Source of the DNA: Chiloscyllium plagiosum
Taxonomy: Eukaryota
Reading direction: 5' to 3'
Assembly: GCF_004010195.1 (NCBI RefSeq)
Contig: NC_057735.1
Coordinates: 46,040,514 to 46,104,513, forward strand
Length of the DNA: 64,000 nt
Positions 1,343 to 59,522 of the stretch are shown here, piece after piece; positions within the stretch are counted from its first letter, which is position 1, and each line of letters starts with the position of its first letter. The notes under the pieces were generated by a model that was not told where the DNA came from, did no database searches, and saw only the letters and a program-made list of their open reading frames with translations. Position numbers and translations under genes: made by a program.

Positions 1343-1397
1343 GTACATAGCAAGTGCAGCTCCAACAACATTCGAAGCTTGTCATCATTCAGGACAA

Positions 1398-1667
1398 GAG
1401 AAAGTGAGGGCTGCAGATGCTGGAGATCAGAGCTGAAAATGTGTTGCTGGAAAAGCGCAGCAGGTCAGGCAGCATCCAAGGAACAGGAGAATCGACATTT
1501 CGGGCATAAGCCCTTCTTCAGGGCTTTTCCAGCATCATTCAGGACAAAGCAGCCCACTTGATTTGCAAGTATTCACTCCCAACCTCCCACCACCAATGCT
1601 CAGTAACTGCGGTGTGTACTTATCCTGTTCCTTGGATGCTGCCTGACCTGCTGCGCTTTTCCAGTAT
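1398..1667. mobile_element. PLE terminal-repeat (family A) insertion with inverted pieces and a duplicated target
   Basis: Minus-strand copy at 1398-1522 includes the hammerhead motif. Plus-strand pieces at 1523-1533 and 1623-1666. atcattcaggacaa is present three times. Confidence 0.85.
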
Positions 1668-2066
1668 CATTCAGGACAAAGCAGCCCACTTGATTTGCAA
1701 GTATTCACTCCCAACCTCCCACCACCAATGCTCAGTAACTGCGGTGTGTACCATCTACAAGATACACTGTAGAAAATCATCAAAGACAACAGCTTCCAGA
1801 TATACGACCACTTCCATCTAGAAGGACAAGGACAGCAGATACATGGGAACGCCACCACCGCAAGTTCGCCATTCACTATACTGACTTGGAAATATATTGC
1901 TGTTCCTCCACTGCCACTAGGTCAAAATCCTGGAATTTGCTCCCTAAGGACCTAAGCACACGGGCTGCAAAAGAAGGCAGCTCACCACCACCTTCTCAAG
2001 GACAATTAGGGTTGGGCAGTTAGTGCTGGCCAGCAAGCAGCACCCACATCCCACAAGTGAATAACA
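1668..2066 (+). mobile_element. 3' end of a CR1/L2-superfamily LINE (also 1343-1397)
   Basis: Tail gcagctcaccaccaccttctcaagg...caattaggg...tgctggcc...cccacatccc. The same tail motif occurs at about 19280-19330 and (minus strand) 23425-23480. Confidence 0.6.
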
Positions 2067-5538: not shown

Positions 5539-8012
5539 CTACCTGGCTGGCCTTGTTCCAAACACTACATCCATCCCCAACTAAGTCCTTAACATACACA
5601 CATTATTTTTTCTGTAGCTTCTCTTAAGGCATTTTTGCACCAAGCCTGGTTTCCCTGACTCTGCCTTGGATACTGATGGCATGTACAGACTGTAGCCCAC
5701 CTCTTGGGAGAAATTAATCTTCTGACGGTAAGGGCATTGAGGCTGCGACATCTGCCAGGTCCATCTTGTCCTGGGAGGTTTCTTTGATACTAGGTAGAGA
5801 TGGTTAAGCTATAGGTTCTGACAGCCATGCTGGATGCTCTGAGGGGCTGGGTGTGTTTTGCTCCTGCCCTATTTACAAGGTTGCAGCTTTCATGTGGTCC
5901 ACAAGATTGTTCATGACCTACCCGAACTCTGTACATCGCAGGACCTGATCATGCAGGGCAATTCCCATGGTCTCAACACCAAACATTGTCCCATGTAGTA
6001 AACTGCCTCTCGCTTAGAGGAATGTTGTATCCAGCTTTGATGTTCCTGATGCTGTTTCACATTCCCACCCACCCCCAGGTCTGGGAAGATCAGATTTAAC
6101 CTGGTGCAGAGTCTCCTCCTCATTAGCAGTCTCTGTAGTTGTGTGAGGGGTGGTCCTATGATCAAACAGTAAGCAGGACAGTTTGGTATTGAGTGAAGCT
6201 GTAGACTGCTTCTTTAAGCTTGCCTTCAAAGTTAGTGTGTTCTTTCCGCCAGACCATTGAATGATGGATGGTGGGGAGCTGTTCTTAAATGCTGAATGCC
6301 ATTCATCTTCAGGAAGTATTCAAATTCCCTGTTGGTAAATGATGGCCCAGTGTCTATGTCCAACACCTCCAGGGGTTTGTGTATTGCAAAAGATGCTTGT
6401 AGCTTTTCTGTCATCTTCGCTGTGTTTGACGAATGAAATCTATGGACGTCTAACCACTTTGAATGGGCTTCCACAATGATTGAGAACATAAGGCCTATGA
6501 AAGGACTGGCATAGCTGACATGTGACTGAGTCTAGTGTTTACCTGGCCATTCGTATGAATGTGGGACAGCTGCTGGTGGTAATATTTGTCTTTGTTGGCA
6601 CTCTGGGCACTGCCCCACCAACACAGCTATGTTGGCATCCAGTTCTGGCCATCAGACATAATTTTTCATCAATATCTTCATTTTGGAAACCCCTGAATGA
6701 CCCAAGTGGAGTTCACCCAGTATCTGGCAGTGACCTTTGCTTGGGACAATCATTCTTGCTCTCCATACTAATATCCTATCGTTTACAGTGATCTAGTCTC
6801 ACTGGGTGCAGAAAGGTTTCAGTTCTGGTTGAGATGGCCCTTTGTTCTCCCATCACCACCAGCTGTTTTAGTTTTGCTAGGATGGGATTGTTTTAGTCTA
6901 ATATTGTCGGCTATGACTGGAAGGGTGTCCAGAAAGTTTAAAACCAGAATCAACTCTTCCGAGGAGGCACTACCGCTGGTAACGTCCGCCAATTTGTGAT
7001 CCGTTATTATTACAAATTCCTAAGAAATTATCCTGAATCTGTAGGGCCTCCAGAGTGTTGGTTCTCAGTCTGGCTGAGGTCTTTTGCAGACTTAAGGGTT
7101 GGAGTCCAGAGTTTGGTAAAGACTGGTTCTGCGATAACTAATGCAGCCCTGCTGGGATTGTCCTCCATTAGAACTGGGTGACCATTTAGAGTCAGAGTCT
7201 CATGAGACATTTATTTTGGTTCTGAGTTGGATGTTATTAAAGCAACTTAACTGATCCAAACCAGCTGTAGGTGGACTTTCCAGGATGTGCACCCTCCTGG
7301 ATACTGGCGTATGAGTTCTTTTACTTGGCAGCAACTACAATGGCCTGCAGTGTGGATCCTCAAGAAACGTTTAACTATTTAGCCAAGGCTTGGTTTTGTT
7401 TTAGAGTTTTGCTGTGGGCTGACATAGAGTCCCTTTGTTAAGATACATCCTGAGTGAGGCTATGCAGTTGCCTTCACTCAAGTTGTGTGCCCTAAGCTCA
7501 GTCAGCATGGCGAGGGGGTCTGCTTCCGTCAGAATACCCTGTAAGCCATAAGCTTCTCTTGGAGAGAGGATTCAGTTTTCAATATTACCGTGTAGTGCTT
7601 GTTTGAAATCCAAATGCACTTGAGCTAGTAGGTGCTTTTTGGAGTCGTGATATTCTTTAGCTAAATCTGTCAACTCTTGAAAGCTTTTTAGTATCTGGTG
7701 CCTCAGTATTTTTTCCAAATACTGGGCCCAGTTTTTGACGCAGGATCAAATGAGTCAATCTTAGCAAAAACCCTGACTCAAGGACAATGGTTGTAGAAAA
7801 TTTTCTTAAGAGTTTTTTCTCTTATCGCCACTGAAATAACTCCCCAAATGCCGCTATCTCGCCACCACATCTCCCTTTATTTACAAATGCATCACAGATG
7901 ACATTGACCGATCAAGGTCAAAGCTGGCTCCTAGACTGAGCAGAACCCTGACACTCCTGTTGAGACAGGACTACCTGATTAGACCAGATGAGCCCCAGTC
8001 AGGAAACTCATT

Positions 8013-8136
8013 GCTCGTTGTTGTGGTTCTGTTCGCCGAGCTGGAAACAGGAGGCTCCCAAGCACTGAGGATGTCACCTAGACAGGGGACAAAACGTTTG
8101 CAACAAACATTTCCAGCTCGGCGAACAGAACCACAA
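8013..8136. mobile_element. 124-bp inverted-repeat cassette of the PLE family B terminal repeat, inside the Gypsy 5' LTR
   Basis: 8013-8046 contains the reverse complement of 8111-8136. 13-bp TSD caggaaactcatt at 8000-8012 and 8137-8149. Confidence 0.9.
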
Positions 8137-8189
8137 CAGGAAACTCATTCTATGAAATCCACATGGCTGACCTTATTCCAATCACTACA

Positions 8190-10662: not shown

Positions 10663-11777
10663 ATTGAATTGAATTGATTTTGTTGTCACATGTACTAAGG
10701 CACAGTGAAAAGTTTTGTCTTGCAAGCAATGCAGGCAACCATTTTTATATGATCAGAAAATTGAAATGAATTGATTTTTTTGTCACGTGTACCATAGCAC
10801 AGTGAAAAGCTTTGTCTTGCAAGCAATACAAGCAATAGTTAAGTAGCATACATAAGTAAATAATAGGTAATCAGTGTCAAAAACAAAAACACAGGTACAG
10901 GCGAATTTAAGAGTTCGTGAGTCTGTTCAGTATTCTCACGACAGTAGGGTAGAAACTGTTTCGAAACCAGCTGTTGCGTATGTTCAGGCATCCGTACCTT
11001 CAACCCTAGAGGTTGTAGAAAAACATTGCCAGGGTGTGATGGATCTTTGAGGATGCTGGCGGCCTCTCGTTGACAGTGGGCCTAGTAGATGGATTCTGTA
11101 GATGGGAGGTTGGCCTTTGTGATTGTCCGGGCCGAGTTCACCACTCTCTGTAACCGTCTCCGATATTGACTGGTACAGTTGCCATAGCAGGTAATAATAC
11201 ATCCAGACGGAATGCTCTTGATGGCGCACCTATAAAAGTTGGCAGAGGAATTTGCCGTCATGCCAAATTTCCTCAGCTGCCTGAGGAAGAAGAGACATTG
11301 TTGAGCCTTTGTAACCAATGCATCCACATGAAGAGTCCAAGAAAGCTTGTGGTGTGTGACCACTCCTAGGAGCTTGACCCTCTCCACTCGTTCCACCTCT
11401 GTGCTGTTAATGTGCAGGGGGGCATGTGCAACATCTGGCCGAAAGTCAATAATGATTTCCTTGGTTTTGCCAGCATTGAGAGCTAGGTTGTTCTTAGTGC
11501 ACCATTTTTCCAGATCTTCCACCTACCGTCTGTGGTCTGTTTCATCCCCATCTGAGATTCGACCAACTATGTTGGTGTCATCAGTGAACTTGTAAGTGGT
11601 GTTAGTCTGATATTTGGCGACGCAGTCATGGGTTGACAGCGAGTACAGTAAGGGGCTGAGTATGCATCCCTGGGTGTTGAGTGTTAATGAGCATGAAATA
11701 TTGTCTCCAATCTTCACTGATTGTGGCATGTGGGTCATAAAACTGAGGATCCAGTTGCAGAGAGTGGGGCTTAGTCC
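10663..11777 (-). mobile_element. Rex1/Babar-clade LINE, 5'-truncated
   Basis: QGCILSPLLYSL.THDC...KFTDDT RT motifs, then WCTKNNLALNAGKTKEIIIDFR and KAQQCLFFLRQLRKFG...NFYRCAI. The 3' tail is (caatt)n. Confidence 0.88.
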
Positions 11778-12164
11778 TTTGGCAATCAAACTTTGAATTC
11801 TTCATCTATATAATAACCAGCTCCAGTGCAAGATGGCAACAGAGTAACAGGGCTGCGTAAGGGCTCTTGCCCAGGGCCCATCCACTCCCATCTGCTTTAC
11901 TTCTTTGTTTTACTTTTGCTTCTGCTCTTTTCTTTCGCTTTATTTTCCTTTTGGTCTTTTTTTCTTATTTCCTGTGGTGGGTTGGTCGGCAGCACCGGTG
12001 CAGAGAGTGGGCCACGTGCAGATTGGCAGAGGTGGCTTCTTCTGGCGATAGGAGACCGGCGGTAATGAGGTAGTTCTCGTGCCATTCGGGGCTTGAGGCA
12101 GTGGAAGCGAGGTCATTCTCTCACCATTCGATGCCTGTGGCAGTGGTAGCAAGGATGTTCTCCC

Positions 12165-16179: not shown

Positions 16180-18200
16180 TTGAGACCATAAGGAATAGCA
16201 GTGGGCTGTTCAGCCCTTTTAGCCTGCTCTACCATTCAGTAGGATAATGGTTGATCCGGCATTCCTCGAATCCACTTTCCTACCCTTTTCCTGTAGCCCT
16301 TGATCTACTGATCAAGAATCTATCTATCTCAGCCTTAAATATACAAACAAGGCCACTGCCTCCACAACTCTCTGTGGCAAGGATTTCCAAAGACTTCCAA
16401 TTCTCTGAGAGAAGAAACGCTTCCTCATCTCGGTCTTAAATTGACATCCCTTTATTCTGACACTATGCCCTCTAGTCCTAGACTCTCTACAAGTGGAAAT
16501 ACCTTTTCAATTCTTACCTTGTCAAGTTCCTTAAGAGTCTGATGTTTCACTGAGATCACCTCTCATTGTTCTAAACTCCAATTAGTCGACTCCCAATCTG
16601 TTTAACCTTTCCTCATAAGACAATCTCTCCATACTGGAATCATCCTAAGGAACCTTCTCTGAACAGCCTGCAATGAAATAATATCTTTCTTTAAATAAGG
16701 AGACATAAACTGCTCACAGGACTCCAGAAGTGGTATCACCAACACTTTATACAGTTGCAGTAAGACTCCACTACTCTTATACTCCAAACCCCTTAAAATA
16801 AGGGCCAATATTCCTTTAGCCTTCGTGATTATCTGCTTTTCACCTGTGCATAGCTTTCTGGGTTTCATGCACAAGTACTGCCAATAGAACATAGAACATT
16901 ACAACGCAGTACAGGCGCTTCGGACCTCAGTGTTACGCCGACCTGTGGAACCAATCTGAAACCTATCTATCCTACAGTATTCTATTTTCATCCATATGTT
17001 TATCCAGTGACCTTTTAAATGCCCTGAAAGTTGGTGAGTCTCCTACTGTTGTAGGCAGTGCGTTCCACACCCGTATTAATCTCTGAGTAAAGAGTCAAGT
17101 TCCTTTGTGTTGCAGCTTTTTGCAGTTTTTCTAAATTTCTTCTCACTTCCAAAATGTACAGCTGCTCATTTTCCCACATTATACTCCATTTATCAATTTT
17201 TGCCCACTTACTTAGTCTATTAATATATCTCTCTGTAAACTATTTTATCACTATTACAATGTGCCTTTCTACCTATTTTGTATCATCTGCAAATTTGGCT
17301 ACAGTACATTCGCTTCCTTCCTCTAAGTCATTACTATGTATTGTAAACACTTGTAGTCACAGCACTGATCCCTGTGGAAGCTCACTCGTCACAGGCCATC
17401 AAGCTGAAAAAAATCCCTTGTCGCTTGCCATTTCCTGCTTGTCAGCCAATTCTTTATATCCATGCCAATATATTGATTAGATTAGATTAGATTAGATTAC
17501 AGTGTGGAAACAGGCCCTTCGGCCCAACAAGTCCACACCGACCCGCCAAAGCGAAACCCACCCATACCCCTACATTTACCCCTTACCTAACACTACTGGC
17601 AATTTAGTATGGCCAATTCACCTGACCCTGCACATCTTTGGATGGTGGGAGGAAACCGGAGCACCCGCAGGAAACCCACGCAGACACGGGGAGAACGTGC
17701 AAACTCCACACAGTCAGTCGCCTGAGTCGGGAATTGAACCCGGGTCTGTGGCGCTGTGAGGCAGCAGTGCTAACCACTGTGCCACCGTGCCACTTCCAGC
17801 AATATATCATAAACTCTTAGCTTATGTCTTAACCTTTTGTGAGGTACCTTGTTGAGTACCTTCTGGAAGTACAATTACAATACATCTATAGGTTCCTCTC
17901 TATCATCTCTGGTTCAGTCTTCTTCAAAAAGCTCTAATAAATTAATCAGACAGGATTTCGCTTCCATGAAGCCATGCTGACTCTACTTGATTTTCCAAAT
18001 GTTCTGCTATTGGTTCCTTAATTGATTCCATACTTTTCCAACAGTAGATTTTAGACCTGCTTTTTGGTTCCCTTCCTTTTTGAATAAGGGTGCCCCATTG
18101 GCATTTTTCCAATCCTCTGGTATTTCTCCAGAATCCAACACATTTACTAACTACGTAGTTATTCCTTTTTAATCCTAGGATGCAAGTTATTGTTGCCTTT
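16180..18200 (-). mobile_element. CR1 LINE RT/3' fragment with a nested CR1 tail (about 16885-17095) and an HE1 SINE
   Basis: KAKGILALILRGLEYKSSGVLLQLYKVLVIPLLE; reverse-strand PQGSVL and KFADDTK motifs at about 17280-17380. Confidence 0.85.
17475..17791 (-). mobile_element. HE1-type V-SINE, full length
   Basis: tRNA-like head (A box TGGCACAGTGG, B box GGTTCAATTCC), V-domain GTGTGGAGTTTGCACGTTCTCCCCGTGTCTGCGTGGGTTTCC, CR1-like tail and (TCTAA)n. Confidence 0.93.
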
Positions 18201-19030: not shown

Positions 19031-19096
19031 CAGATGCCTTTTAAATGTTAACAATCATATAACAACAGATTGTAATCCAACAGGTTTATTTGGAAG

Positions 19097-19131
19097 CACT
19101 AGCTTTCAAAGCACAGCTTCTTCATCAGGTG
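19097..19131 (-). ncRNA. Minimal hammerhead ribozyme motif, family C (in a PLE-type terminal repeat, about 19060-19172)
   Basis: Minus strand reads cac-CTGATGA-a-gaagc-tgt-gcttt-GAAA-gc-TA-gtg. Stem I cac/gtg, stem II gaagc/gcttt, palindromic AGCT at stem III. Confidence 0.75.
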
Positions 19132-19178
19132 GTTGTGAAGCAGGACCATAAGACAGAATTTATAGCAAAAGAGGAAAA

Positions 19179-19210
19179 TCAACATTTCGGGCAAAAGCCC
19201 TTCATCAGGA
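19179..19210 (-). ncRNA. Minimal hammerhead ribozyme motif, family A
   Basis: Minus strand reads tc-CTGATGA-a-gggc-tttt-gccc-GAAA-tg-TT-ga. Confidence 0.7.
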
Positions 19211-19633
19211 ATGCGGAATCCACAAAATGTGGTTGACTCTTCATTGTCCTCTGAAATTGCCTAGCAAGTCACTCATTTTAAGGGCAATTAAGGATGGCAA
19301 AAATGCTGGCCTTGCCTGTGAAGCCCATAATCCATGTACCAATTGAACTTGCTGAGATGGTGCATTTTACACCTTAGCTACTTGACTGAAAAATAGTTTT
19401 TTTTTTCTAATTTCTTTTGCGTATTTTCCCATTTGCTTTAATTCCATACATAAACACCCTCTTGGCTTTTTTCTTACACTCATCTGTGCTCCCTATTATG
19501 TGTGCCATCCTTTATGAATATTCACTGTCATGTATGCAACCCCTCAGAGAACAATCCACTGATGTATTTCCCTTCTCATGTACTTATAAGTTAGTATCAG
19601 CTGTTGTTTTATTATAATACTATTTTATTGCAG

Positions 19634-20216: not shown

Positions 20217-20536
20217 GGGGCGGCACGGTGGCACAGTGGTTAGCACTGCTGCCTCACAGCGCCAGAGACCCTGGTTCAATTCCCGCCTCAGGCGACTGAC
20301 TGTGTGGAGTTTGCACGTTCTCCCCGTGTCTGCGTGGGTTTCCTCCGGGTGCTCCGGTTTCCTCCCACATCACAAAGATGTGCAGGGTCAGGTGAATTGG
20401 CCATACTAAATTGCCAGTAGTGTTAGGTAAGGGGTAAATGTAGAGGTATGGGTGGGTTTCGCTTCGGCGGGTCGGTGTGGACTTGTTGGGCCGAAGGGCC
20501 TGTTTCCACACTGTAATCTAATCTAATCTAATCTAA
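20217..20536 (+). mobile_element. HE1-type V-SINE, full length
   Basis: GGGGCGGCACGGTGGCACAGTGGTTAGCACTGCTGCCTCACAGCGCC head, V-domain and (TCTAA)n tail. Confidence 0.95.
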
Positions 20537-22430: not shown

Positions 22431-22655
22431 CGTACATGAAGAGTCAGGAAGAAAACTCCAAGGATGACAATTTGTGGTGATGTTGAATGATAGCAAACAA
22501 CTGGAGGACAACCAAGTTGTCAAACAAGTGCAACAAAAAACAGCATGTATCTCTCCAGTTACGATCACAAGCTTTGTACAGCTCATCACACCTTCAAGGC
22601 GTTACATCGAAGTTTGAATTGTTCATCTTGTACACTCTGCTTTCACTGATTTGTG

Positions 22656-22747
22656 CTGAAACTTTATTGCTGGAACAGCACAGCAGGTCAGGCAGCATCT
22701 AGGGAACAGAAGATTCGACGTTTCGGGCACATGCCCTTCTTCAGGAA
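22656..22747 (-). mobile_element. PLE family A terminal repeat with an intact hammerhead motif
   Basis: Minus strand reads attc-CTGAAGA-a-gggc-atgt-gccc-GAAA-cg-TC-gaat, with a 4-bp stem I. 9-bp TSD tgatttgtg at 22647-22655 and 22748-22756. Confidence 0.85.
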
Positions 22748-23547
22748 TGATTTGTGTAATTACCAAGTTAACAACCTGTGCCTGTGTACAACCTACATTT
22801 GTCTGTTTGGGTCTTTTCTTATCTTTGGAAAGGAGGGATGTGTTTAATGTCTCGTAGCATGTCACCATAGCATTAAGAGAGACATTAATGATGGGTCACA
22901 TGCTATGATGTAGTGGTAATGACAGTACAAAGGTCTCAGACTCTATCTTTATTCAGGTCACTTAAAGTAAGATACACTGGATGGCAGATACACAACAACA
23001 GACATGGACCTGGTGACTACCTGTGATGTAAACCTTTACTTGAAGTGGCAGATTTGCTTAATTCTTAAATCAGCTTTGAAACATTGAACCAAGGTCATGA
23101 CAGATGCCATCTATAGGAAGATCAGGTGGTCAAGTATAGAACAATGACAGGCCAAGCGAGCTAGAGGCTTGGACATTGTAGCTGGACTCTCCTGAGTACA
23201 AGACGTCATAGACTGCGCACACCTGGCTGTCATGGTGCTCAGACCAGCCAGTGGCTTCATTTCAGCTAAAAGGCTCTCACCCTCAACATCGAATTTGTCT
23301 ATAACCACTACCAATATATCTTGCAGGTGTGTGTAGTTTATCTTGGAAGCAGCCACAAATCTTAGATTATCCTGCACTCCTCCTCCCCCAGTGTTTTGCA
23401 GTGACAGTATTATTTGTTCAGGAGTGGTAGGTGTTGCTGGCTAGTCCAGAATTTATTGCCCATCCCTAATTGCTTAGAGGACAGTTAAATATCAGTCACC
23501 TTGCAGTAGGTCTGGAGTCGTATAAGCCAAACCAATTGGGACGGCAT

Positions 23548-26499: not shown

Positions 26500-27120
26500 G
26501 AGGACTGTCTCTTCCCCCAATATCAGTAGTGGAGGCCATAATATCAGACTATGGTCTGAGGTTGTCACCCAAGTTAGAGAATAAAGGAAGGTGGACATCC
26601 TTCTGTGCTCCACTAGTAAAAGTGCCATAATTTCTCTCCAGCACCTGACACTCACTCCATCTCTGCTACTGCATTGAACTCCCAACAAGGCTCATGCTTT
26701 ACCAGTCTCACAGTTGCTTGTAATATTTTCCTCACTCAGCCTTGCCCACTCCAACCTGCAAAATAACTAACTCTGTATGGCCTCAATGAATAAGGCATTT
26801 GCACACCTACACCAAAATTAATAGCTCTATCATCCACAATAATCTCCCATAATACCTGCCCATATCTCGTTTCATGAGCTAAACAGCTTGCAACAGGGCA
26901 GAAGTACTCAACATAGCTGATGAGCTGCCAATCATTTAGCTGCTCGACCATTATGGGTAGAGGATCCTGACTCTGACTACCCCAAACAGAATCTAGACAG
27001 GTGTTGGAGGCCGCCTTTGACTTACTCTGCTGGCTGCGCCTAAGGCAGGGCTATTAACCGTGATTGAATAGAGGTGACCTGGCCTTCCACCTCGATTCTG
27101 CTTGGCATCTTCAACCATAT

Positions 27121-28085
27121 TGTTATGACGCAGTCTAAGCCAAACACGCAGAAAAACCCACCTTGCCTCCTAACCTGTTAACATATGAATGACAGAGAAC
27201 TCCCAAATTCCACTAGTTAAAGAAAATAATATCAATTTATTCTTTGACTCTAAAAGTGATCATTAAGCAGCTATTCCCAATTCTAAGCCCACCTTTCTCT
27301 TAAGCTGTTTATTAGCTGCTCCCAACTCTATAACAATATACTGTTCCAATAATACACTTATTGAAATTGCACCTACCTAATTACAAAACCATACAACGGC
27401 TGTCATCTTTGGTGTCTTTCTTGTTCCGGCTGAAGATCTCCCTGGGTCATCTTTCTTTTTATTGTGAAGATGTTTCATATGAAAAGGTACCTTTGATAGA
27501 GAGTGTTTTGATATCTTGGGTTTGTCTGTCTCTCTCTCTCTCGATGGCAGTTGCCCTGTCTGATTTTCAAAATGCCTGCCTTTGTCATATCCTCACATTG
27601 GATCGTCTCATTGGTTCACTGTTGCCAAACAATCAATTCAGACCTGATTGGGTTTTAGTATCCTGGGGCATAATTGAAACTAGGAGAAAGTAAGGACTGC
27701 AGATGCTGGAGATCAGAGCTGAAAATGTGTTGCTGGAAAAGCGCAGCAGGTCAGGCAGCATCCAAGAAGCAGGGGAATCGACGTTTCGGGCATGAGACCT
27801 TCTTCAGGACAGATTTCTGAAGAAGGGCTCATGCCCGAAACGTCGATTCTCCTGCTCCTTGGATGCTGCCTGATCTGCTGCGCTTTTCCAGCAACACATT
27901 TTCAGCATAATTGAAACTGATTGGTTAAATTTGAATAGTTATCAAAACAACAACCAACTCAGGTATCTATTTCACAGCCAAATGTTACGTATTTTCAATT
28001 TCTGAGACTTCTCTTGTAAACTCTCAGTGCAGAACAGTGTTCATTCTGTCTTAAAGGTACAGTACACGCTTTCAACTTCATAACA
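27121..28085 (-). mobile_element. Solo LTR (Gypsy-type) containing a PLE hairpin cassette
   Basis: Termini TGTTATGA...TCATAACA form an 8-bp inverted repeat. 4-bp TSD atat at 27117-27120 and 28086-28089. AATAAA on the minus strand at about 27236. Confidence 0.8.
27682..27904. mobile_element. Inverted-repeat cassette of two PLE family A terminal repeats, each with a hammerhead motif
   Basis: 27717-27807 is nearly the reverse complement of 27817-27906. 14-bp TSD gcataattgaaact at 27668-27681 and 27905-27918. Plus-strand core CTGAAGA-a-gggc-tcat-gccc-GAAA-cg-TC at 27817-27844. Confidence 0.92.
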
Positions 28086-29109
28086 ATATCTGTTTCCTTT
28101 CCTTCCCTCCTACTACACCTAGATGCAGATTAGAGGGCACCTGCCCAATAGTTGAGCCTGTCAGTCAACTCAAAGGATGTTTTCAGCGAGAAGGCCCAGG
28201 CATACCTAGTATATCATGTCTAGATGGAGGTTCACCTTCCTTAACCTCTTGTATGATTGACATTTCATTGTAAATGCATTGTCATATTTGCAAATATTTG
28301 TTCACTTTCCAGCATCAGTCATGTGAGTAAATGTCATTTCAGTTGCTACTACAGTAATGAAGATAGAGAAGCTAGCTTTTCTTAACATTACATGATATTC
28401 TAATCTTGTTAAGTGATATCTCTCCTTTCCACAGCATGATTTAATGAGGGAGAATCAGACGATTTGAAGGTTTCCATTAAGTTGTCAGCTTAACTTTTAT
28501 TAAATACCATTAATTACATCGGAAGATCAAGATACAAAGCTGTGTTTTCTTTAGGATTATAAAAGGATGCTGGCCCATCTTCAAAACTTATGCAGCCAAC
28601 GAAAGATGACTTCATGCAACTCAATTCCATTGAACAATGTTCAGAAAAAAGGCCTTACTGTGTGCTTTTGCTGAAGGTACTGTATTGTGCCGTAGTATAG
28701 CAAAGGCGCTGAAGAACATCTCCATCATCTCAATGTTGCAGATCCATCATTCATCTTAATCTTGGTGCATCCTTCAGTTGTTTGGAAAAATCTGAAGCTC
28801 CAGACATGCTCACCAGCAGGTGTTCTTGGGTCTAACATAGATAAAGTACCACTGAGATGTCGGTATCTGAGCTGTTGAGGGTGAAAAGATAGCCTTCCTC
28901 TGAGTGACTAATCCTCTCTGAGATTCTTGTAAGGTAGGCCTTGTGATGGCAGACACCCTTTAGTGGCTGCAAAGGTATAAGAGAGAGAGCATTGTGACAA
29001 AGATATAGAATAAATGCACAATGGGGGTCATGGGAGATGAGCTCAACAGTGACCAGGGTTTCTTGCCTGGATGCCGGGTTATAGAGGTTTCAGCATCTCC
29101 ACATGACTA

Positions 29110-29690: not shown

Positions 29691-30439
29691 TCAAGTTGAA
29701 TATCTGCAACCATGCTCCAAACACCAACATATTTTGACCAGGTCTGCAGCAAGCATGGTGTCAATGCTATGAAATTGCTGATATCCTGGGATTTCCTGGA
29801 GGTAGTGAGTACTTCTGGCTATGGTGAGTAGGGGAATTGAAATAGAATTAGATAAGAAGGGTGCCGTAGGGGCATGGTAGATAGTTAATGAGGCAAGTTT
29901 GGAACAATCACATGAGAAGAAAAAAACTTCCATAAAACTTGATGAAAATGACACTTCTATCAAAACGTGGGAAGATTCAGCTCTAATGATACATGATGTG
30001 GTCAAGGGTACTTGGACCCAGGATTTCTAGTGGACATAGTAAGTCAATGTCTCAGGTTCACAGAGTATTTTTTGGTAACATTTCTTTTCACCTGTACTGT
30101 GTGGATGTTTGTTAGAAAGAGTGCATCTTCTAAGTTTCTTCATTTGGATTGTGGAACAAAATGTGAAAAAGTTAATACCTAGGATTGTGGAAGGAGTTGC
30201 TGCCTTTTACAAATAAACTACGGGACTCATTATGTATTGTGTTTACATTGTTGCTTTGCCCGAGCAGTGAGGGAAGATACCCAAGGTCACATGGGTGTAT
30301 GTCTAAAGAATGCACAAACAGATTGCTGGTTTGTTTGTGCAATTAGGGCCATTTAAGGAGGTCAACAGTTATGAGCGAGATGACAGCTTTCTGATTCATT
30401 TCTAGGCAAATGAACAGCTTGTTGTATGAACATTAGAGA

Positions 30440-30725
30440 AAGTTAAAAATTGCACAATACCACGTGATAGTCCAACAGGTTTATTTGGAAGCACTAGCTT
30501 TCGGAGCACTTTTCATTCATCAGGTGATTGTGGAGGATAAGACCATAAAACACAATATTTATAGCAAAAGATTGTGTCTGTGTCTTATGGTCTTATTCTC
30601 CACAACCACCTGATGAAGGAGCAGCGCCTGGAAAGGTAGTGCTTCCAAATAAACCTATTGGACTATAAGCTGGCGTTGTGTGTTTTTTAACTTTGTCCAC
30701 CCTAGTCCAACACCAACTCCTCCAA
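30440..30725. mobile_element. Inverted-repeat cassette of two family C terminal repeats (hammerhead-bearing, partly decayed)
   Basis: 30440-30550 is inverted relative to 30580-30695. 14-bp TSD atgaaca(t/c)tagaga at 30426-30439 and 30726-30739. Confidence 0.85.
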
Positions 30726-30990
30726 ATGAACACTAGAGAGGCAGTTGTATCCAGGCTGGAAAAGATACAGGGTCTTTCTCTCTGTCTCTGCACTGAAGTA
30801 ACTGAACACTGAAAGGTAGATATCTACTTACTTCCTTCATTTTCTGGAAACTTGCCTCTAACCAGTAACTGAAAGGCTAAACAAGTAATGTGTCACCTGT
30901 CCTGGGTCTTCAGCAAAGAACTGAAAGGAGCTGGAAATAAGGACATTAGAGATCAGGAGGACTTGGGAGATGCAAAACAAACACCCCATT

Positions 30991-31112
30991 AAAGGCTTTT
31001 GGCCGAAACGTCGAAATTTCTGTTCCTCGGATGCTGCCTGACCTGCTGTGCTTTTCCGGCACCACTTTAATCTTGACTCTAATCTCCAGCATCTGCAGTA
31101 CTCACTTTTGCC
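30991..31112 (+). mobile_element. PLE family A terminal repeat, truncated before the CUGA core
   Basis: ggcttttggccgaaacgtcga...gatgctgcctgacctgctg...atctccagcatctgcagtactcac. Confidence 0.8.
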
Positions 31113-32299
31113 TATCCCATTAAACCTGTCAACTGGTGCCACTGAACTGTGTTTTCCAATTACGTATGTGTGTGTATATGTGTGTGTGTGTTCAGTTGAA
31201 AATTATATATATGTTTCCTTGTGGTTAGAATTGATTTATTTGTAATAAATAGTTCTCCTTAAAGTACAGAAGAATGGTCAGTGCTTTCTATTAAACTGAA
31301 TGCATCAGACTGCTAAACTCAGTAAACTAAGCACTTTGAGTTATTTGCTAAACTCTTTTACCTTAGTGATGACCCTAGAAGAAGTGGGGTTGAACACACT
31401 TTACCAAGTAGATCTCCTGACACTGTTTAATGTTATTACCTTTCAAAAGGCCTCACATAGCATGAAAGTGTATCGTCATCCTTTAAAGAATGAAACACTT
31501 AATTCGCCCACTCTAGGTCTGATGGCAGTCATTTTCACTTCCATTGTGTACCAGCTAATTGGAGGAGAATGGAAGAAAACCATGTTGCTCTTCATTGAGA
31601 GAGTTACTGCTTCAGTCTCTCAGTCTAGATGACCCTCACCAAATTTTCATTCTCTCTTCTTTCTTGCTGTTCTTGTCAATACCATTGGCTTTGTTCTTTG
31701 TCATATTCCCACCCAAATAGTTTGTTTAACTGTTCACCTTCACACTTTACTCACAGATCCTGAGGCATACTGTATAGCCATCCTGGACATACTGCACTGT
31801 CCCCATTAATGCATCAGGTATGCTGACTCTCAATGAACACCCCTCTTGCTGTACCCCTTTCCCTCCCATGCTCTGTTGCCTGCTCCCTTTATTCATTAAC
31901 TTGCCCATTTTCACAATAATTATCCTCTCTGTATCCCAGCATGTTGTCCCCAGTCTCCACAATTGAGTTCTTCAGCTACTCTACCATAACAATGCATTTG
32001 ATAATGCACCCCACCTTGACTTACAGTGGATAAACTCTTAGGACTGACCATGACCCACCCCTCTGACTGTGAAAGACCATGTGATTGATCAAGGAACAGT
32101 CTGATCCCTACTCAGTTCCCCAACTGACTAATCACAACTCTCCAGGCTGGATGCATTGGAACTGAGGGATTAACTATGGTCCAGTCCTTGGACTGTAGAT
32201 GTTGGACCCCTGACTCTGACTCTGACCTTGACTCTGACTCTGATTGTCCAAGTGACCAACTGACAGTGTCCAAACCCCTGGACTGATGTTGGACAACAC

Positions 32300-38719: not shown

Positions 38720-39750
38720 TTGAATAACAATAAATTAGAGGGATAGTCAATCCTGAGGAGGACTGTATCAACTTACAGGAGGACATTAATAAACTTATAG
38801 AGTAGTAATTAGCAATGAAGTTCAATGTATAAATGTCAGCTAGTAGATTTTTGTAGCAAGAAAAGGAAAGCTACTAATTATTTGGAAGGTATGAATCTGT
38901 TGGGGTAGAGGAACAGATACATCAATCACTAACAGTTGCGTCATCATTTTAAAACAAAAGCAAATTGAACCATGTCCTTAATTCCAAGAGGGATAACATT
39001 AAAAAGTAGAGAAGTTATGGTAAGCCTGTAGTGCACATTAGATGAAGCTTTAAGCACTCTATGTAGTTCTGGTCATTATAAAAACACATAGAAGAACTGG
39101 GGAGTTACAAAGATGATTGACAAGGATAATAGCTGAAAATGTTTTGCTGGAAAAGCGCAGCAGGTCAGGCAGCATCCAAGGAACAGGAGAATCGACGTTT
39201 CGGGCATAAGCCCTTCTTCAGGACCCCGAAACGTCGATTCTCCTGTTCCTTGGATGCTGCCTGACCTGCTGCGCTTTTCCAGCAACACATTTTCAGCTCT
39301 GATCTCCAGCATCTGCAGTCCTCACTTTCTCCCTGACAAGGATAGTACACAGTATGATGGATATACATATCCAAAAAGGATAAACTCTTCTCTTGAAAGA
39401 TGAAGACTGAGGAATGACTTTAAAACTGTGAAAGGTTTTGATATAAGTGTTTACAGACAGAATATGTTCGTTTGTGGGGAACAGCATAATTAGAGGTCAT
39501 CAATATAAAATGGTTGTCAAGAAATCCAAAAGGCAATTTAAAAAACTATTTATCTAAGCAATTTTTAAAAAATCCAAAGATTGGGGAGAAAATGGTATTC
39601 CGTAAATACGTTTAAGAGAAAGCTAGTCAACCTTTAGGGGGCCAAATGAAGTGTAGCATTTAATGATAAGATAAGGAGACATGGAATATGGCTCATATAA
39701 AGTATAAATGGATTTGTTGATCTAAATTACCTTTTTCTGTGTTGTGTAAT
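38720..39750 (+). mobile_element. Old CR1 LINE 3' fragment hosting a PLE cassette
   Basis: EEDC..LQEDI..L...AMKFNV.KC remnant and downstream CR1 motifs. Confidence 0.7.
39131..39333. mobile_element. Inverted-repeat cassette of PLE family A terminal repeats (intact hammerhead on the minus strand, 39192-39223)
   Basis: 39131-39204 is nearly the exact reverse complement of 39225-39298. TSD tgacaaggata(a/g)t at 39118-39130 and 39334-39346. Confidence 0.92.
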
Positions 39751-43384: not shown

Positions 43385-43695
43385 CTTAGAATCCTTACAG
43401 TGTGGTAGCAGGCCATTCGGCCCATCAAGTCCACACTGACCCACCAAAGAGCAACTCACCCTTCTACCCTATCCTTGTGACCCTGCATTTCCCTACACAT
43501 CCTGGACACTATAGCCATTTAACGTGGTCAGTCTACCTATACAGCATATCTTTAGGCTGTGGGAAGAAACCAGAGCACCAGAGAAAATCCACACAGAAAT
43601 GGGGAGAATATGCAAACTCCACAGTCACCCGAAGGTGGAATCGAACCCAGGTCCCTGGCGTTGAGAGGGAGCAGTGCTAATCGCTGAGTGACTGC
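43385..43695 (-). mobile_element. Older diverged HE1-type SINE
   Basis: Diverged head, V-domain (ggggagaatatgcaaactccacag) and tail. Confidence 0.8.
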
Positions 43696-43964: not shown

Positions 43965-45088
43965 AGGCTGGTTAGTAAGGTTGGATCTCATGGAGGACAG
44001 GGAGAACTATTTGGATACAAAACTGGCTCGAAGATAGAAGACAGAGGGTGGTAGTGGAGGCATGCTTTTCAGACTGGAGGCCTGTGACCAGTGGTTTGCC
44101 ACAAGGATCGGTGCTAGGTCCACTACTTTTTGTCATTAATATAAGTGATTTGGATGTGAACGTAGGAGGTATAGTTAGTAAGTTTGCAGATGACAACAAA
44201 ATTGAAGGTGTAGTGGACAGCAAAGAAGGTTACTTCACATTACAACGGGACCTTGATCAGATGGGCCACTTGGCTGAGTGGCAGATGGAGTTCAATTTAG
44301 ATAAATGTGAGGTGTTGCATTTTGGAAAAGCAAATTAGAGCAGGACATAAACACTTAATGGTAAGGACCCTGGGTAGTGTTGCTGAACAAAGAGACCTTG
44401 GAGTGCAAATTCATAGTTCCTTGAAAGTAGAGTTGCAGGTAGATGTGATAGTGAAGAAGGTGTTTGTTAAGCTTTCCTATATTGGTCGGAGCATTGAGTA
44501 TAGGAGTTGGGAGGCCATGTTGCGGCTATACAGGACATTGGTTAAGCCACTTTTGGAATATTGCGTGCAATTCTAGTCTCTTTCCGATTGGTAGGATGTT
44601 GTGAAACTTGAAAGGGTTCAGAAAAGATTTACAAGGATATTGCCAGAGTTGGAGAATTTGAGCTATAGGGAGAGGCTGAATAGGCTAGGACTGTTTTTCC
44701 TGGAGCGTTGGAGGCCGAGGGGTGACCGTATAGAGGTTTATAAAATCATGGAGGGCATGGATAGGATAGGTCTTTTCTCTGGGTTGAGAGAGTCCAGATG
44801 CAGGGGGCATATGTTTAGGGTGAGAGGGGAATGAATGAAAGAGACCTAAGGGACAACATGTTCACACAGAGGGTGGTGTGTGTTTGGAAGAGCTGCCAGA
44901 AGTGGTGGTGGAGGCTGACACAATTACAGCATTTAAAAGGTATCTGGATTGGTGTATGAATAGGAAGGGTTTAGAGGGATATGGTCCAATTGCTGGCAAA
45001 TGGGACTCGGTTAGGTTAGGATATCTGGTTGGTATGGACTAGTTGGACCGAAGGGTCTGTTTCCGAGCTCTATATCTCTATGAATCTA
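43965..45088 (+). mobile_element. CR1/HER1-type LINE, 5'-truncated; best-preserved copy in the window
   Basis: WRPVTSGLPQGSVLGPLLFVINISDLD...SKFADDNKIEG; LYRTLVKPLLEYCVQF; 3' tail ggaccgaagggtctgtttcc shared with the HE1 SINE tail. Confidence 0.95.
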
Positions 45089-47065: not shown

Positions 47066-47222
47066 CAGGTTAGGTTAATTGGCCATGCTAAATTGCCCGT
47101 AGTGTACGTGAAAGGGTAAGTGTAGGGGAATGGGTCTGGGTGGGTTGCTGTTTGGAGGGTCATTGTGGTCTTGTTGGGCGAAGGGCCTGTTTCCACACTG
47201 TAAGTAATTTAATCTAATCAAT
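47066..47222 (+). mobile_element. HE1 SINE 3' half
   Basis: ggccatgctaaattgcccgtagtg...gaagggcctgtttccacactgtaag...tctaatc. Confidence 0.85.
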
Positions 47223-47229
47223 CTTCTGA

Positions 47230-50050: not shown

Positions 50051-51397
50051 TAATGCTGGCCTCAGTGCTCAGGTTGGGGTGACCATAGCTCTTGACCGCA
50101 ATACACTTTAAAAAGAGCTTAAATAGTGAAGAGGTAGCAAGGCTGAAGGTGTAGTTGCTCTTTCATAAATGTAGCTGGATCTCACTACTGGTGACTGTGC
50201 TGTAGAAGTTGGTATGATTTTCAGAGCCACTCTCTTTGATCATTAAGTAATAAAAAGACAATACGCAAAGGGGCAAGGGAATAATTTGGGTAACTCAGAA
50301 GATGTGGTGATTCCCCAGTCATAATACGAAAAGGAGGGTAGGGGCAGGTAGTAGAAGGAGATGTGGGGGTTGGGGGGATGTCACCTGCTGTAAGAATACT
50401 TGAGTATTACTGCTTTCTTGTTCCTGAAAGGAGGAAATTGTAGCAATACCAGGTGCTTGTGTTTGACCAGTGATTTGAGGTTTTATTTGGGTCAGAGGGA
50501 AGGTGATGTTATTGTTTGTTATTGATGTTCTCTTTTTCCATTTGCTGCTCTTACTAAACAAATAACAGCAACACAAAAGCAAAGGCTAAAATTTTCCATA
50601 TATTTCTAAACAACCTGCTTAGTGTTGTGACTACACAATTCCGAAGCAGTTGAGACTTGAGGCAGGGCCTCTGGCTTAAAGGTAGGGACGCTACCACTAC
50701 ACCACAAAGGCTCTTTCCAAGTTCTGCAAGTACAGTTGCAATGAGCATTACCTGCTCTCTGGAGCTTTTATGTTTGGCCTTATAAGGGGTTCTTACGGTG
50801 CAGAGGTAGTGTCTCTACCTATAAGCAGCCCTGGGCTCAAGTAATACTTCCTTCAGAGCTGGGTAATAACAACTCTGAACAAGTTTATTTGAAATAAAAG
50901 TCATATGATTGACCCTTAAAGGGGACTATAAATCCTACATTGGAATAGTAAAGCAAGCTTTCCAACTCGACGCTAAACACTGATAAGGCACCACAGCGTT
51001 TCTGCTACTTGCATTCCAAATTCTGTACCTGCAAATGTACTGTAGAATTGATGTGGTTTAGAAGCTCTTACTAATAATTTTCTTCTGGGTTAGCAAGTTA
51101 TAAGAGATGATTGAACCCAGAGCTATGTAGAGCATTCTGAGCTTCTGAAGATCTTAGGACTGATATTAAAGTGTCCATAACTCAGGACTTCAATACAATC
51201 CTCATAGAAGTGACCACATGCTCTATTGTTGTCTGCAGTCATTCTGTTTCCATCAGACTCCCCTATAACTTGGAGGTGGACTTCTCCAACTTCAACATTA
51301 TGCACCTGCTCCCTAACAGGCTGTCCAGTGCACCAATCAGCTGACAGATTACAACTATCTTCTCTTATGGACTCACCTTTGGAAGTCTTCTAAGCAA

Positions 51398-51728
51398 GGG
51401 CGGCACGGTGGCACAGTGGTTAGCACTGCTGCCTCACAACGCCTGAGACCCGGGTTCAATTCCCGCCTCAGGCGACTGACTGTGTGGAGTTTGCACGTTC
51501 TCCCCGTGTCTGCGTGGGTTTCCTCCGGGTGCTCCGGTTTCCTCCCACAGTCCAAAAGATGTGCAGGGTCAGGTGAATTGGCCATGCTAAATTGCCCGTA
51601 GTGTTAGGTAAGGGGTAAATATAGGGGTATGGGTCGATTTCGCTTTGGCGGGTCGGTGTGGACTTGTTGGGCCGAAGGGCCTGTTTCCACACTGTAATGT
51701 AATCTAATGTAATCTAATCTAATCTAAT
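51398..51728 (+). mobile_element. HE1-type V-SINE, full length
   Basis: A and B boxes, V-domain, CR1-like tail and (TCTAA/TGTAA)n. Confidence 0.95.
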
Positions 51729-53359: not shown

Positions 53360-54353
53360 TATATATGCTGAAGACAGAGTGGGATGGTGGGGCAAAGGTG
53401 TAAATGAAGGTGGAGATAGAATCCAGAGAGACAATGCAGCAGTTATACAAAGGCTTGGATAATGGTGAGCTGGGGAAAAAGAAAAGCTGATAATGGGAGC
53501 CATTTATTAATAGGAGAAAGTGAGGACTGCAGATGCTGGAGATCAGAGTTGAAAAGCGTGACACTGGAAAAGCATAGCAGGTCAGGCAAGCATCCGAGGA
53601 GCAGGAAAGTCGAATGTGGAGGCAGAGGGAAAGGGAACTGAGGGTGGGGTGGGGTGGGGGATAGCTGGGAAGATAATCAAATAAATGCAAGTGGGAGGGT
53701 GATAATGATAGATCAGAGTGGAGGGTGGATCAGATGGATGGGAAGGAAGATGGACAGGTAGGACAGTTCAAGAGGGCGGTGTCAAGTTGCAGGGTTGGAT
53801 CAGGGATGAGGTGGGGGGAGGGGAGATAAGGAAACTGGTGATATCAATGTTGATGCTGTATGGTTGAAGCGTGACAAGGCACAAGATGAAGCATTCTTCC
53901 TCCAGTCATCAGGTGTCTTGGGTTCGGTGGTGGAGGAGACCCAGAACTTGCATGTCGTTGGCAGAATGGGAGGGAGAGTTAAAGTGGTTGACCACAGGGC
54001 GCTGGGGTTGATTGGTGCGTGAGTCTCGGAGATATTCCCTGCAATGTTCCGCGCGTTGGTATCCTGTCTCCCCATTGTAGAGGAACCCACATCAAGAGCA
54101 ATGGACACAGTGGATGAGGTGATTGGATGTGCAGGAAAATCTCTGCTGATGTGAAAAGATCCTTTGGGACCTTGGATGGAGGTGAGGCAGTGAGGTGTGG
54201 GTGCAGGTTTTACACCTCTTGTGGCGGCAAGGGACGGTGCCAGGAATGGAGGGTAATTGGTGGGAGGGAGGGCTTGGACCTAACGAGGGAGTCATGGATG
54301 GAATGATCTATGTGGAACATAGATAAGGATGGGGAGGGAAATATATCTCTGGT
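53360..54353 (-). mobile_element. Neptune-type PLE 3' part with a family A terminal repeat
   Basis: GTVPCRHKRCKTC and FSCTSNHLIHCVHCS..G....G.T GIY-YIG remnants; terminal repeat at 53512-53615. Confidence 0.85.
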
Positions 54354-54989
54354 TCAAAGTTTGTGCGAAGATTTGTAGCTCGGGTGCTCGTTGTTGTGGT
54401 TATGTTCGCCGAGCTGGGAATTTCTGGTGCAGATATTTTGCCCCCTGTCTCGGTGACATCCTCAGTGCTTGGGATCCTCCTGTGAAACGCTTCTGTGATG
54501 TTTCCTCCGGCATTTGTAGTGGTTTGAATCTGCCGCTTCCGGTTGTCAGTTCCAGCTGTCCTTTTGTGGCTAGTTGGTGTTCATGGATGCGGATCGTTAG
54601 CTGTCTTCCTGTTTGTCCTATGTAGTGTTTTGTGCAGTCCTTGCATGGGATTTTGTACACTACATTGGTTTTGCTCATGCTGGGTATTGGACAACACTAC
54701 TATTATAGGCCAAGCCAAACAGGGAACAGTCAGGGAATTCCTAGAGGCTTGGCACTCATCCACAGATGCAATCAATAAGCACATTGACCTGGACCCTATA
54801 TACCGACCACTGCAGCGGACAGCTGGAACTGACAACCGGAAGCGGCAGATTCAAACCACTACAAATGCCGGAGGAATTATCACAGAAGCGCTTCACAGGA
54901 GGCTCCCAAGCACTGAGGATGTCACCTAGACAGGGGACGAAACGTCTGCACCCAGAAATTCCCAGCTCGGCAAACAGAACCACAACAAC
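54354..54989. mobile_element. PLE family B insertion with a twin inverted structure; intact + strand hammerhead at 54910-54949
   Basis: Minus arm 54354-54687 (GIY-YIG NVVYKIPCKDCTKHYIGQTGRQLTIRIHEH) and plus arm 54688-54989. 13-bp TSD atatatctctggt at 54341-54353 and 54990-55002. Core gca-CTGAGGA-t-gtcacct-agac-aggggac-GAAA-cg-TC-tgc. Confidence 0.92.
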
Positions 54990-55319
54990 ATATATCTCTG
55001 GTGGTGGGGTCATTCATTAGTAGGTGAAAATGGGTTGATGATAAGCCAGGATGTGGGGACGTGTAAAGGAAATGGAATAAGTTGTTCAGGCCCTAAAATT
55101 ATTAAACATGATTTTTAGTCCTGAAGGCTGCAGTGTTCCCAAGTGGAAAATGAGATGCTCTTCTTTAAACTTGCACTGAGTTCTGATGAAGCATTGCAGC
55201 AGGTCTGAAACATTGTTGGCTGGTGAACATGGTGATGCATTGAAGTGGCAGGCATCCAGAAACTTGGGGTAATTATTACAGAGAAAATGTAAGTCTTCAA
55301 CAAAGCACTCAGCCAGTCA

Positions 55320-59199: not shown

Positions 59200-59522
59200 G
59201 GTAGTGATTGTAATGAGGTCAGCCAGCTGGACCTCACAGAATATGGGTTTCCTAATTGGCACTGTTAACCTGATCCAATCAGGGATGCGTGACTGACATA
59301 AAAGTCACAACCACCTGATGAAGGAGCAGAAAAGCTAGTGCTTCCAAATACACCTGCTGGACTATAAACTGATGTTGTGTGACTTTTAACTTTGGACATA
59401 AAAGGATAAATGTCAGGGATCTTGAGCCCTGAATGCCTGACACAGTGAGAGATAGTGGTATTGTCAAAGACTGCATTTGTAAATAAAGGGTGATTGATGC
59501 AGGCCTCTGAAGAGTTGTTTCA
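59200..59522 (+). mobile_element. Solo LTR related to the 5051-8189 Gypsy LTRs, carrying a family C terminal-repeat insertion (59305-59394)
   Basis: gtagtgattgtaatgaggtcagccag...aaataaagggtga...gttgtttca matches the reverse complement of 7832-8189. The insertion is flanked by gacataaaag at 59295-59304 and 59395-59404. Confidence 0.8.

Follow-up and report, generated by a model that had tools for sequence, protein, structure and literature searches.

The 223-bp non-coding insert at positions 27682-27904 of the window (the whole 64,000-nt stretch of Chiloscyllium plagiosum DNA analysed here) is very probably an extremely 5'-truncated insertion of an endonuclease-bearing Penelope-like element (EN+ PLE). 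It consists of an inverted and a direct copy of one pseudo-LTR end, placed head to head within a single pair of target-site duplications (TSDs), and is a dead stub, roughly 5% diverged. The best explanation overall, held here with good confidence, is a PLE insertion stub whose hairpin was built by dual priming and end-joining; dual priming itself is favoured with less assurance as the route. Judged from the related copies described below, the hairpin is most likely a by-product formed anew at each insertion. The architecture of this cassette has already been published (Arkhipova 2013, Cervera 2014, Craig 2021, Frangieh 2024), and the cassette is not a new kind of mobile element.

Anatomy of the cassette and its host LTR

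The cassette interrupts a host element at 27121-28085, which has TG...CA ends and 8-bp terminal inverted repeats, is flanked by a 4-bp duplication (ATAT, 27117-27120 and 28086-28089), and is multicopy in public contigs, as seen in the depth over its left part. These features support the assignment as a solo LTR. The left boundary of the LTR is present in a contig of organism B (26906-27206, with 11 other letters and 7 gaps over about 300 nt); the LTR insertion is thus shared and probably older than the split from organism B. The organism B contig covering 27545-27677 stops within the TSD and so decides nothing on the presence of the cassette there. No host exon was recognised with Pfam among the 75 open frames of at least 92 aa in the window, a search in which short exons would be missed. 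Pfam matches were obtained for 4 of the 75 frames: one integrase, two reverse transcriptases (RT), and an ALKBH8_N domain beside an RT frame. The ALKBH8_N frame with the adjoining RT frame is presumably a LINE remnant. Also, decayed remnants of LTR elements and LINEs lie in short frames at 6235-6531, 11085-11801 and 43979-44335 (Pfam integrase core, RT, ALKBH8_N). A scan for bacterial promoters, a method not applicable to this DNA, returned counts at chance level.

The left TSD (27668-27681, plus strand) is 14 bp long and AT-rich, and is matched exactly by the right TSD (27905-27918, plus strand). The chance of an exact flanking 14-mer is ~2e-6, even with 21 × 21 offsets allowed. The TSD edge is uncertain by 2 nt, since 27905-27906 are both the start of the right TSD and the last two bases of the arm. 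The 14-bp TSD and the 223-bp insert without coding sequence in a solo LTR, as described in the initial annotation, were thus recovered. The repeat unit (family A) is 128 nt long on its sense strand, namely 92 nt beginning just upstream of a hammerhead core, followed by 36 nt. The complete unit makes up the left arm (minus strand, 27682-27809); the right arm (plus strand, about 27813-27906) is limited to the first 92 nt. In the left arm the 36 nt form a PLE 'tail' (27682-27717, minus strand), which lies outside the hairpin, occurs on this arm only, and has a sharp outer end in public contigs with unrelated AT-rich flanks; the remainder is the inverted copy of the 92-nt pseudo-LTR end (27718-27809, minus strand, delimited by arm alignment). 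The direct copy (27813-27904, plus strand) is without tail, its last 2 nt (27905-27906) coinciding with the TSD. Because the tail stands between the left TSD and the inverted repeat, the latter is not terminal.

An inverted-repeat search placed the arms at 27718-27807 and 27817-27906 (90 nt, 96% complementary, separated by 9 nt); aligned over the full 92 nt they are identical at 87 of 92 positions, in agreement with the minus and plus copies and the near-perfect arms of about 90 bp noted earlier. The 9-nt spacer noted with them holds as the distance between the arms, but it is mostly arm sequence: the non-family filler at the head-to-head junction measures 3 nt (27810-27812), or up to 5 nt should 27813-27814 lie outside the family sequence. 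At the filler position family A normally continues with other letters (public contigs, loose ends behind 27809). Two substitutions (alignment columns 16 and 41) are common to both arms and absent from both sister family-A cassettes of the window. This is expected of one template source; later conversion between the arms, or copying of the cassette as a unit, would give the same result.

The parent element and related insertions

The PLE parentage of the repeat is visible in two longer family-A copies, both on the minus strand. The copy at 53512-54340 comprises a broken end of a GIY-YIG ORF, a 3' UTR, the pseudo-LTR end and the tail; the copy at 60004-61120 comprises a broken GIY-YIG ORF end, an interspersed repeat (60128-60439), then the pseudo-LTR end and the tail. 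In both, the family-A repeat is the terminus of the element, downstream of the broken ORF end. Together with the one-sided 36-nt tail this bears out the proposed PLE origin, and the reading of the cassette as a minimal product of PLE insertion is likewise supported. The two ORF remnants are 51% identical to each other over 157 aa, and the 60-kb remnant has 1611 protein matches at E ≤ 0.001 (phmmer, 1.84 billion representatives). Seven of the 150 listed homologues were scanned with Pfam. The six long ones (752-891 aa) carry a C-terminal GIY-YIG domain in 6/6 cases and RVT_1 in 5/6, several of these matches lying below Pfam's curated cut-off; the seventh (272 aa) gave a weak GIY-YIG match. Pfam matched none of the frames of the ORF remnants themselves (0/4 and 0/3), a word-indexed search of longer proteins yielded 111 candidates and none significant, and no RT region of family A was seen in the window. 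Both the 53-kb remnant and the protein P0004 have a Cys-rich motif (C-x4-C-x2-C-x-H) upstream of GIY-YIG. Such a motif before the endonuclease is described as a mark of Neptune and Nematis in the work cited here (PMC8557442), and the parent element may be termed 'Neptune-like' at most on these protein features.

In the long copy at 53512-54340 the hammerhead core is wholly missing (53600-53625), with the breakpoints in the two strands of stem I, the upstream 3' UTR and the remaining pseudo-LTR being kept. The interspersed repeat at 60128-60439, which interrupts the other long copy, belongs to a family of ~310 bp, SINE-like in size, found also at 17475-17791, 20218-20536, 51397-51719, 43386-43686 and 47066-47224; four copies are 94-97% alike and two are older. 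A metagenome scan with a 34-nt family-A motif gave 0 matches, and one with a 20-nt motif gave 17, none of which aligned to the unit beyond 26 nt and which were taken as chance.

Family A is represented by 15 BLAST pieces in the window, including two further two-arm cassettes. The sister cassette at 39118-39347 (minus strand) lies in the opposite orientation, with a 14-bp TSD (13/14, 11 exact) and a tail on one arm; its tailed arm is without the first ~19 nt, its tail-less arm holds, at 39225, about 19 nt absent from the tailed arm, and its centre is different. The third cassette (1383-1679, plus strand) has a 15-bp TSD, a full tailed arm and a short direct arm, the tail-less arm ending 13-15 nt short of unit position 92. 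At its centre lies a 97-nt stretch copied from the cassette's 3' junction and the target DNA downstream of it (1523-1619 equal to 1655-1751, 96/97 identical), a templated insertion at the joint that suggests polymerase-mediated end-joining. Single-arm insertions are present as well: one without tail at 22647-22756 (minus strand, 9-bp TSD), whose repeat copy (22655) ends at internal unit position 92, and one tailed, family-A-like, at 30985-31124 (plus strand, 9-bp TSD). Among the family-A cassettes of the window that are readable in full, the centre is different in each (3/3); for the question of whether the central junction is formed de novo or shared, this favours formation de novo. The tail is one-sided in all three and also in a family-B cassette (54341-55002). 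Of the seven family-A pieces with a recognisable CUGANGA box, six have their start within about 7 nt upstream of the box rather than at the cut site, and one (60051-60102) extends further into the upstream part of the element. Starts near the box would be expected either if the template RNA begins there or if the RT stalls after the ribozyme fold.

Two further families were observed. Family B is PLE-like, with a two-arm insertion at 54341-55002 (13-bp TSD, tail on the inverted arm only, internal deletion within that arm) and a smaller two-arm version at 8000-8149 (13-bp TSD). Family C is hammerhead-bearing (30439-30695, 19044-19150 and 59295-59404), its core ends being GAAAGCUA and GAAAGGUA. 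At 30439-30695 it forms a head-to-head pair with a longer centre, at which no TSD was found; the piece at 59305-59394 has a 10-bp TSD. On one strand at 19044-19213, a short family-A-like piece adjoins a family-C piece, their hammerhead motifs being ~80 nt apart. In total, TSDs were found at 8 of the 17 sites tested in the window (9, 9, 10, 13, 13, 14, 14 with 11 exact, and 15 bp) and were absent at the other 9. A fixed-length TSD, which had been named as a mark of a true DNA-transposon MITE, was thus not observed, the lengths ranging from 9 to 15 bp.

Public contigs were compared over 26900-27816, i.e., the left flank and one arm; sets X1 and X5 are from organism A (the library type of X5 being unrecorded) and X9 is from organism B. 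An RNA run (X22) placed 0 reads on this stretch, a count that carries no weight on transcription. The stretch is matched by 69,776 contigs of X1, and the depth peaks over the repeat; summed depth is about 12 in the unique flank and reaches 10^6-10^7 within the repeat, a figure that is not a copy number. Loose ends are concentrated at the tail end (27681-27683: 459+677+563 contigs in X1; 440+710+619 in X9), and the flanks beyond it are AT-rich and unrelated (consensus agreement 0.32-0.34). In the joints listed, one partner is a variable inner position (27759, 27760, 27770, 27779, 27793) and the other lies at 27720-27722 or 27682, as expected if the 3' ends are fixed at two places and the 5' ends vary. 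The 15 best-supported joints include no strand switch at the centre, a result still compatible with a shared centre at modest copy number. The one strand-switch joint among those listed (27683/27722) ties the two outer ends together, with no target DNA between them; it is supported by 12, 1 and 10 contigs in X1, X5 and X9, respectively. This joint is not predicted by the dual-priming model; it would possibly arise from tandem cassettes.

Hammerhead motifs and the hairpin fold

Each strand of the cassette carries one minimal type-I hammerhead motif, in line with the initial annotation only at the level of the motif. The minus-strand copy (27780-27807, CUGAAGA...GAAA-CGUC) carries a private change at 27797 that disrupts stem II and leaves 2 contiguous pairs, versus 4 in the sister copies. 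The plus-strand copy (27817-27844) has an intact core, a 4-bp stem II and a G-U first pair of stem I, and is predicted to be cut after 27844. Both are without helix III and have the palindromic ACGU, and their cores are 9 nt apart. The motifs were found with our own minimal type-I descriptor, filtered for stem II of at least 3 and stem I of at least 2 pairs. In the 64-kb window it gave 13 raw hits, of which 8 passed the stem filters, compared with 0.01 in 100 shuffles. An Rfam scan of the window at gathering score gave 0 hits. The plus-strand RNA of the cassette is predicted to fold at -183.7 kcal/mol, compared with -74.1 ± 4.5 for shuffled sequences (z = -24.4, 0/200 shuffles as stable), and the minus-strand RNA at -173.9 kcal/mol. 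In the folded full cassette no core base is unpaired with a probability above 0.074, and for 19 of the 20 core positions this value does not exceed 0.003. The fold prediction supports the view, already put forward in the initial annotation, that both cores are masked within the hairpin; a Dicer or ADAR substrate, also raised there, is a conjecture.

Motifs of the same kind were described for metazoan PLEs, in the account cited here, with CUGANGA, an extra nucleotide, stem II and GAAA, palindromic positions 15.2-16.2, no helix III and a short stem I (PMC4209133). In Schistosoma, dual minimal hammerheads were reported on opposite strands about 100-700 bp apart, and a monomer showed no cleavage and dimers low cleavage (Cervera and de la Pena 2014, PMC4209133). 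The cassette differs from these in that its cores sit 9 nt apart and one copy is damaged; no shark is named in the portion of that work drawn on here. Since a dimer is presumed necessary for such a motif and each strand holds a single copy, one stem II is broken and the cores are predicted to be masked, ribozyme activity at the cassette locus appears unlikely.

Origin of the hairpin

An inverted copy, a one-sided 30-40-bp tail and a TSD are described as typical for EN+ PLEs (Arkhipova et al. 2013, PMC3846280; Craig et al. 2021, PMC8557442). The complex insertions of such elements and the cassette are alike in the inverted head-to-head copy, the one-sided tail (36 nt here), the TSD of variable length at an AT-rich target, the parent with a GIY-YIG ORF and the hammerhead in the pseudo-LTR. 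The cassette differs in that only the pseudo-LTR ends are left, giving a 223-bp near-perfect hairpin; also, TSDs of rotifer PLEs are given as 8-10 bp (PMC3846280), as opposed to 14 bp here. The formation of the inverted arms of PLEs was still described as undefined in the work cited (PMC8557442). The literature search found no description of palindromes of pseudo-LTRs alone in sharks; Repbase, Dfam or supplements may hold examples.

The following course is proposed for the anatomy, the variable centres and TSDs and the two fixed 3' ends observed. The GIY-YIG endonuclease would nick both strands of an AT-rich site in the solo LTR, 12-14 nt apart. The 3' end of the bottom strand would prime the RT at an internal start site (unit position 92), and that of the top strand at a second start site 36 nt downstream, at the tail end (position 128). 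Both cDNAs would run for about 90-130 nt and halt just 5' of the hammerhead core. Host end-joining would then unite the cDNAs in head-to-head orientation, adding a few filler bases, and the TSD would result from fill-in. Nicking and extension of both strands, and two RT starts bounding the tail, are carried over from in vitro work on a related PLE, a Poseidon-clade element of an Anolis lizard (Frangieh 2024, PMC11167929). In the experiments cited from that study both target strands were nicked and extended, RT started at two sites bounding the tail, targets were AT-rich, uncut RNA was the main template, and a dimer was predicted. With two RT starts and extension of both strands, one strand would receive an arm with the tail and the other strand an arm without it. 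The cassette resembles the lizard system in these starts, in the use of both strands, in the AT-rich target and in copies with an uncut ribozyme. The lizard element belongs to another clade than family A, which has the Cys-rich linker of the Neptune/Nematis type, and in the part of that report used here the joining of inverted arms is not addressed (PMC11167929).

Twin priming, as named in the initial annotation, was not upheld in its classical form. In L1, both nicks prime cDNA and two inverted fragments come to lie in one TSD pair with filler at the inner junction, as in the cassette; classical twin priming yields non-overlapping inverted fragments with an internal deletion, whereas dual priming proceeds on two RNAs (Meyer et al. 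2010, PMC2837659, for the cases described there). Both arms of the cassette span the same 92 nt, and classical L1-type twin priming was therefore rejected; the full overlap of the arms fits dual priming from two RNA copies or a repeated pass over a single RNA. Unlike L1 insertions, the cassette has no poly(A). We infer end-joining as the last step from the filler at the cassette centre and from the target DNA copied into the centre at 1383.

A more specific form of dual priming can be put forward as a rather doubtful suggestion. The template would be a discrete, SINE-like mini-PLE RNA of ~130 nt whose 5' end lies a few bases before the hammerhead core, in place of random 5' truncation. Two such RNAs, paired via the palindromic ACGU, would be delivered to the two nicks of one target by a dimeric PLE protein; the minimal hammerhead would then act as a dimerisation signal besides or instead of cutting. 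This suggestion draws on the six of seven pieces starting near CUGANGA, on the near-equal stops of the two cassette arms, which end within 3 nt of each other at the 5' side, and on their shared private substitutions; stalling of the RT at the ribozyme fold explains the same ends. If the two-RNA reading is true, each hairpin cassette would be the footprint of an intermediate with two RNAs and two RTs.

Copying of one arm from the other by self-priming, whether the first cDNA folds back on itself or an antisense template is used (the latter as in Arkhipova 2013), is considered improbable. It would account for the near-symmetrical centre and for the private substitutions common to the arms, and it was inferred in rotifer PLEs from palindromes at inverted junctions, in the passages cited (PMC3846280). 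However, the 36-nt tail is confined to the second arm and could not be gained by fold-back of a cDNA that lacks it; the template switching invoked in the initial annotation fails at the same point. If the tailed arm came first, the copy would have to stop at position 92, which is the end of single-arm tail-less copies and is explained more simply by RT initiation. Neither the tail-less arm of the 39225 cassette, with its ~19 nt missing from the tailed arm, nor the 1383 centre with its copied target DNA is a simple fold-back product.

Amplification of the cassette as a non-autonomous unit, transcribed, perhaps circularised, and reinserted in trans by PLE protein (a retro-MITE or retrozyme-like element), appears quite improbable. 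The two private substitutions common to both arms are compatible with it, as is the joint between tail end and internal end without target DNA, such as tandem or circular cassettes would give. Pseudo-LTRs alone are reported to suffice for mobilisation in trans (PMC3846280, for the elements covered there), and tandem retrozymes are described as derived from them (bioRxiv 10.64898/2026.07.22.740005, in the text cited). Against this stand the three different family-A centres in the window, the lack of a central strand-switch among the 15 best-supported joints, and a hairpin of -174 to -184 kcal/mol that would mask both ribozyme cores, with no head-to-tail tandem as in retrozymes. The non-LTR retrozymes of that preprint are, like the cassette, non-coding, hammerhead-bearing and derived from PLE pseudo-LTRs. 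They are head-to-tail tandems with two same-strand type-I hammerheads, whereas the cassette is head to head with one hammerhead per strand, and membership among retrozymes was rejected on this ground.

The initial annotation had called the cassette 'MITE-like'. MITEs of DNA transposons are likewise small hairpins without ORF and with a TSD; they have true terminal inverted repeats and a fixed TSD length, and the cassette has neither and descends from a retroelement. A MITE of PLE-derived sequence moving by cut-and-paste would be short and non-coding with a long inverted repeat and a TSD, as found here, yet it is very improbable: the inverted repeat begins 36 nt inside the left end, so that terminal inverted repeats do not abut the TSD on both sides, TSDs measure 9-15 bp and occur also on single-arm copies, three different centres were seen (in the window), and the repeat is the 3' end of copies with a GIY-YIG ORF. 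Membership among MITEs was accordingly rejected. An origin of the palindrome from two independent insertions or a later DNA rearrangement, conceivable in view of the great abundance of family A (69,776 contigs in X1), deserves hardly any credence, as both arms lie within one TSD pair and share private substitutions and the polarity is the same in 3/3 family-A cassettes.

As a single locus the cassette matters little. For the class of minimal two-arm stubs, genome-wide counts of junctions could tell dual priming, self-priming and unit amplification apart. Such stubs are a trap for repeat annotation, in which they would be filed as MITEs, and their transcription within introns or UTRs would, if it occurs, be a source of long double-stranded RNA.
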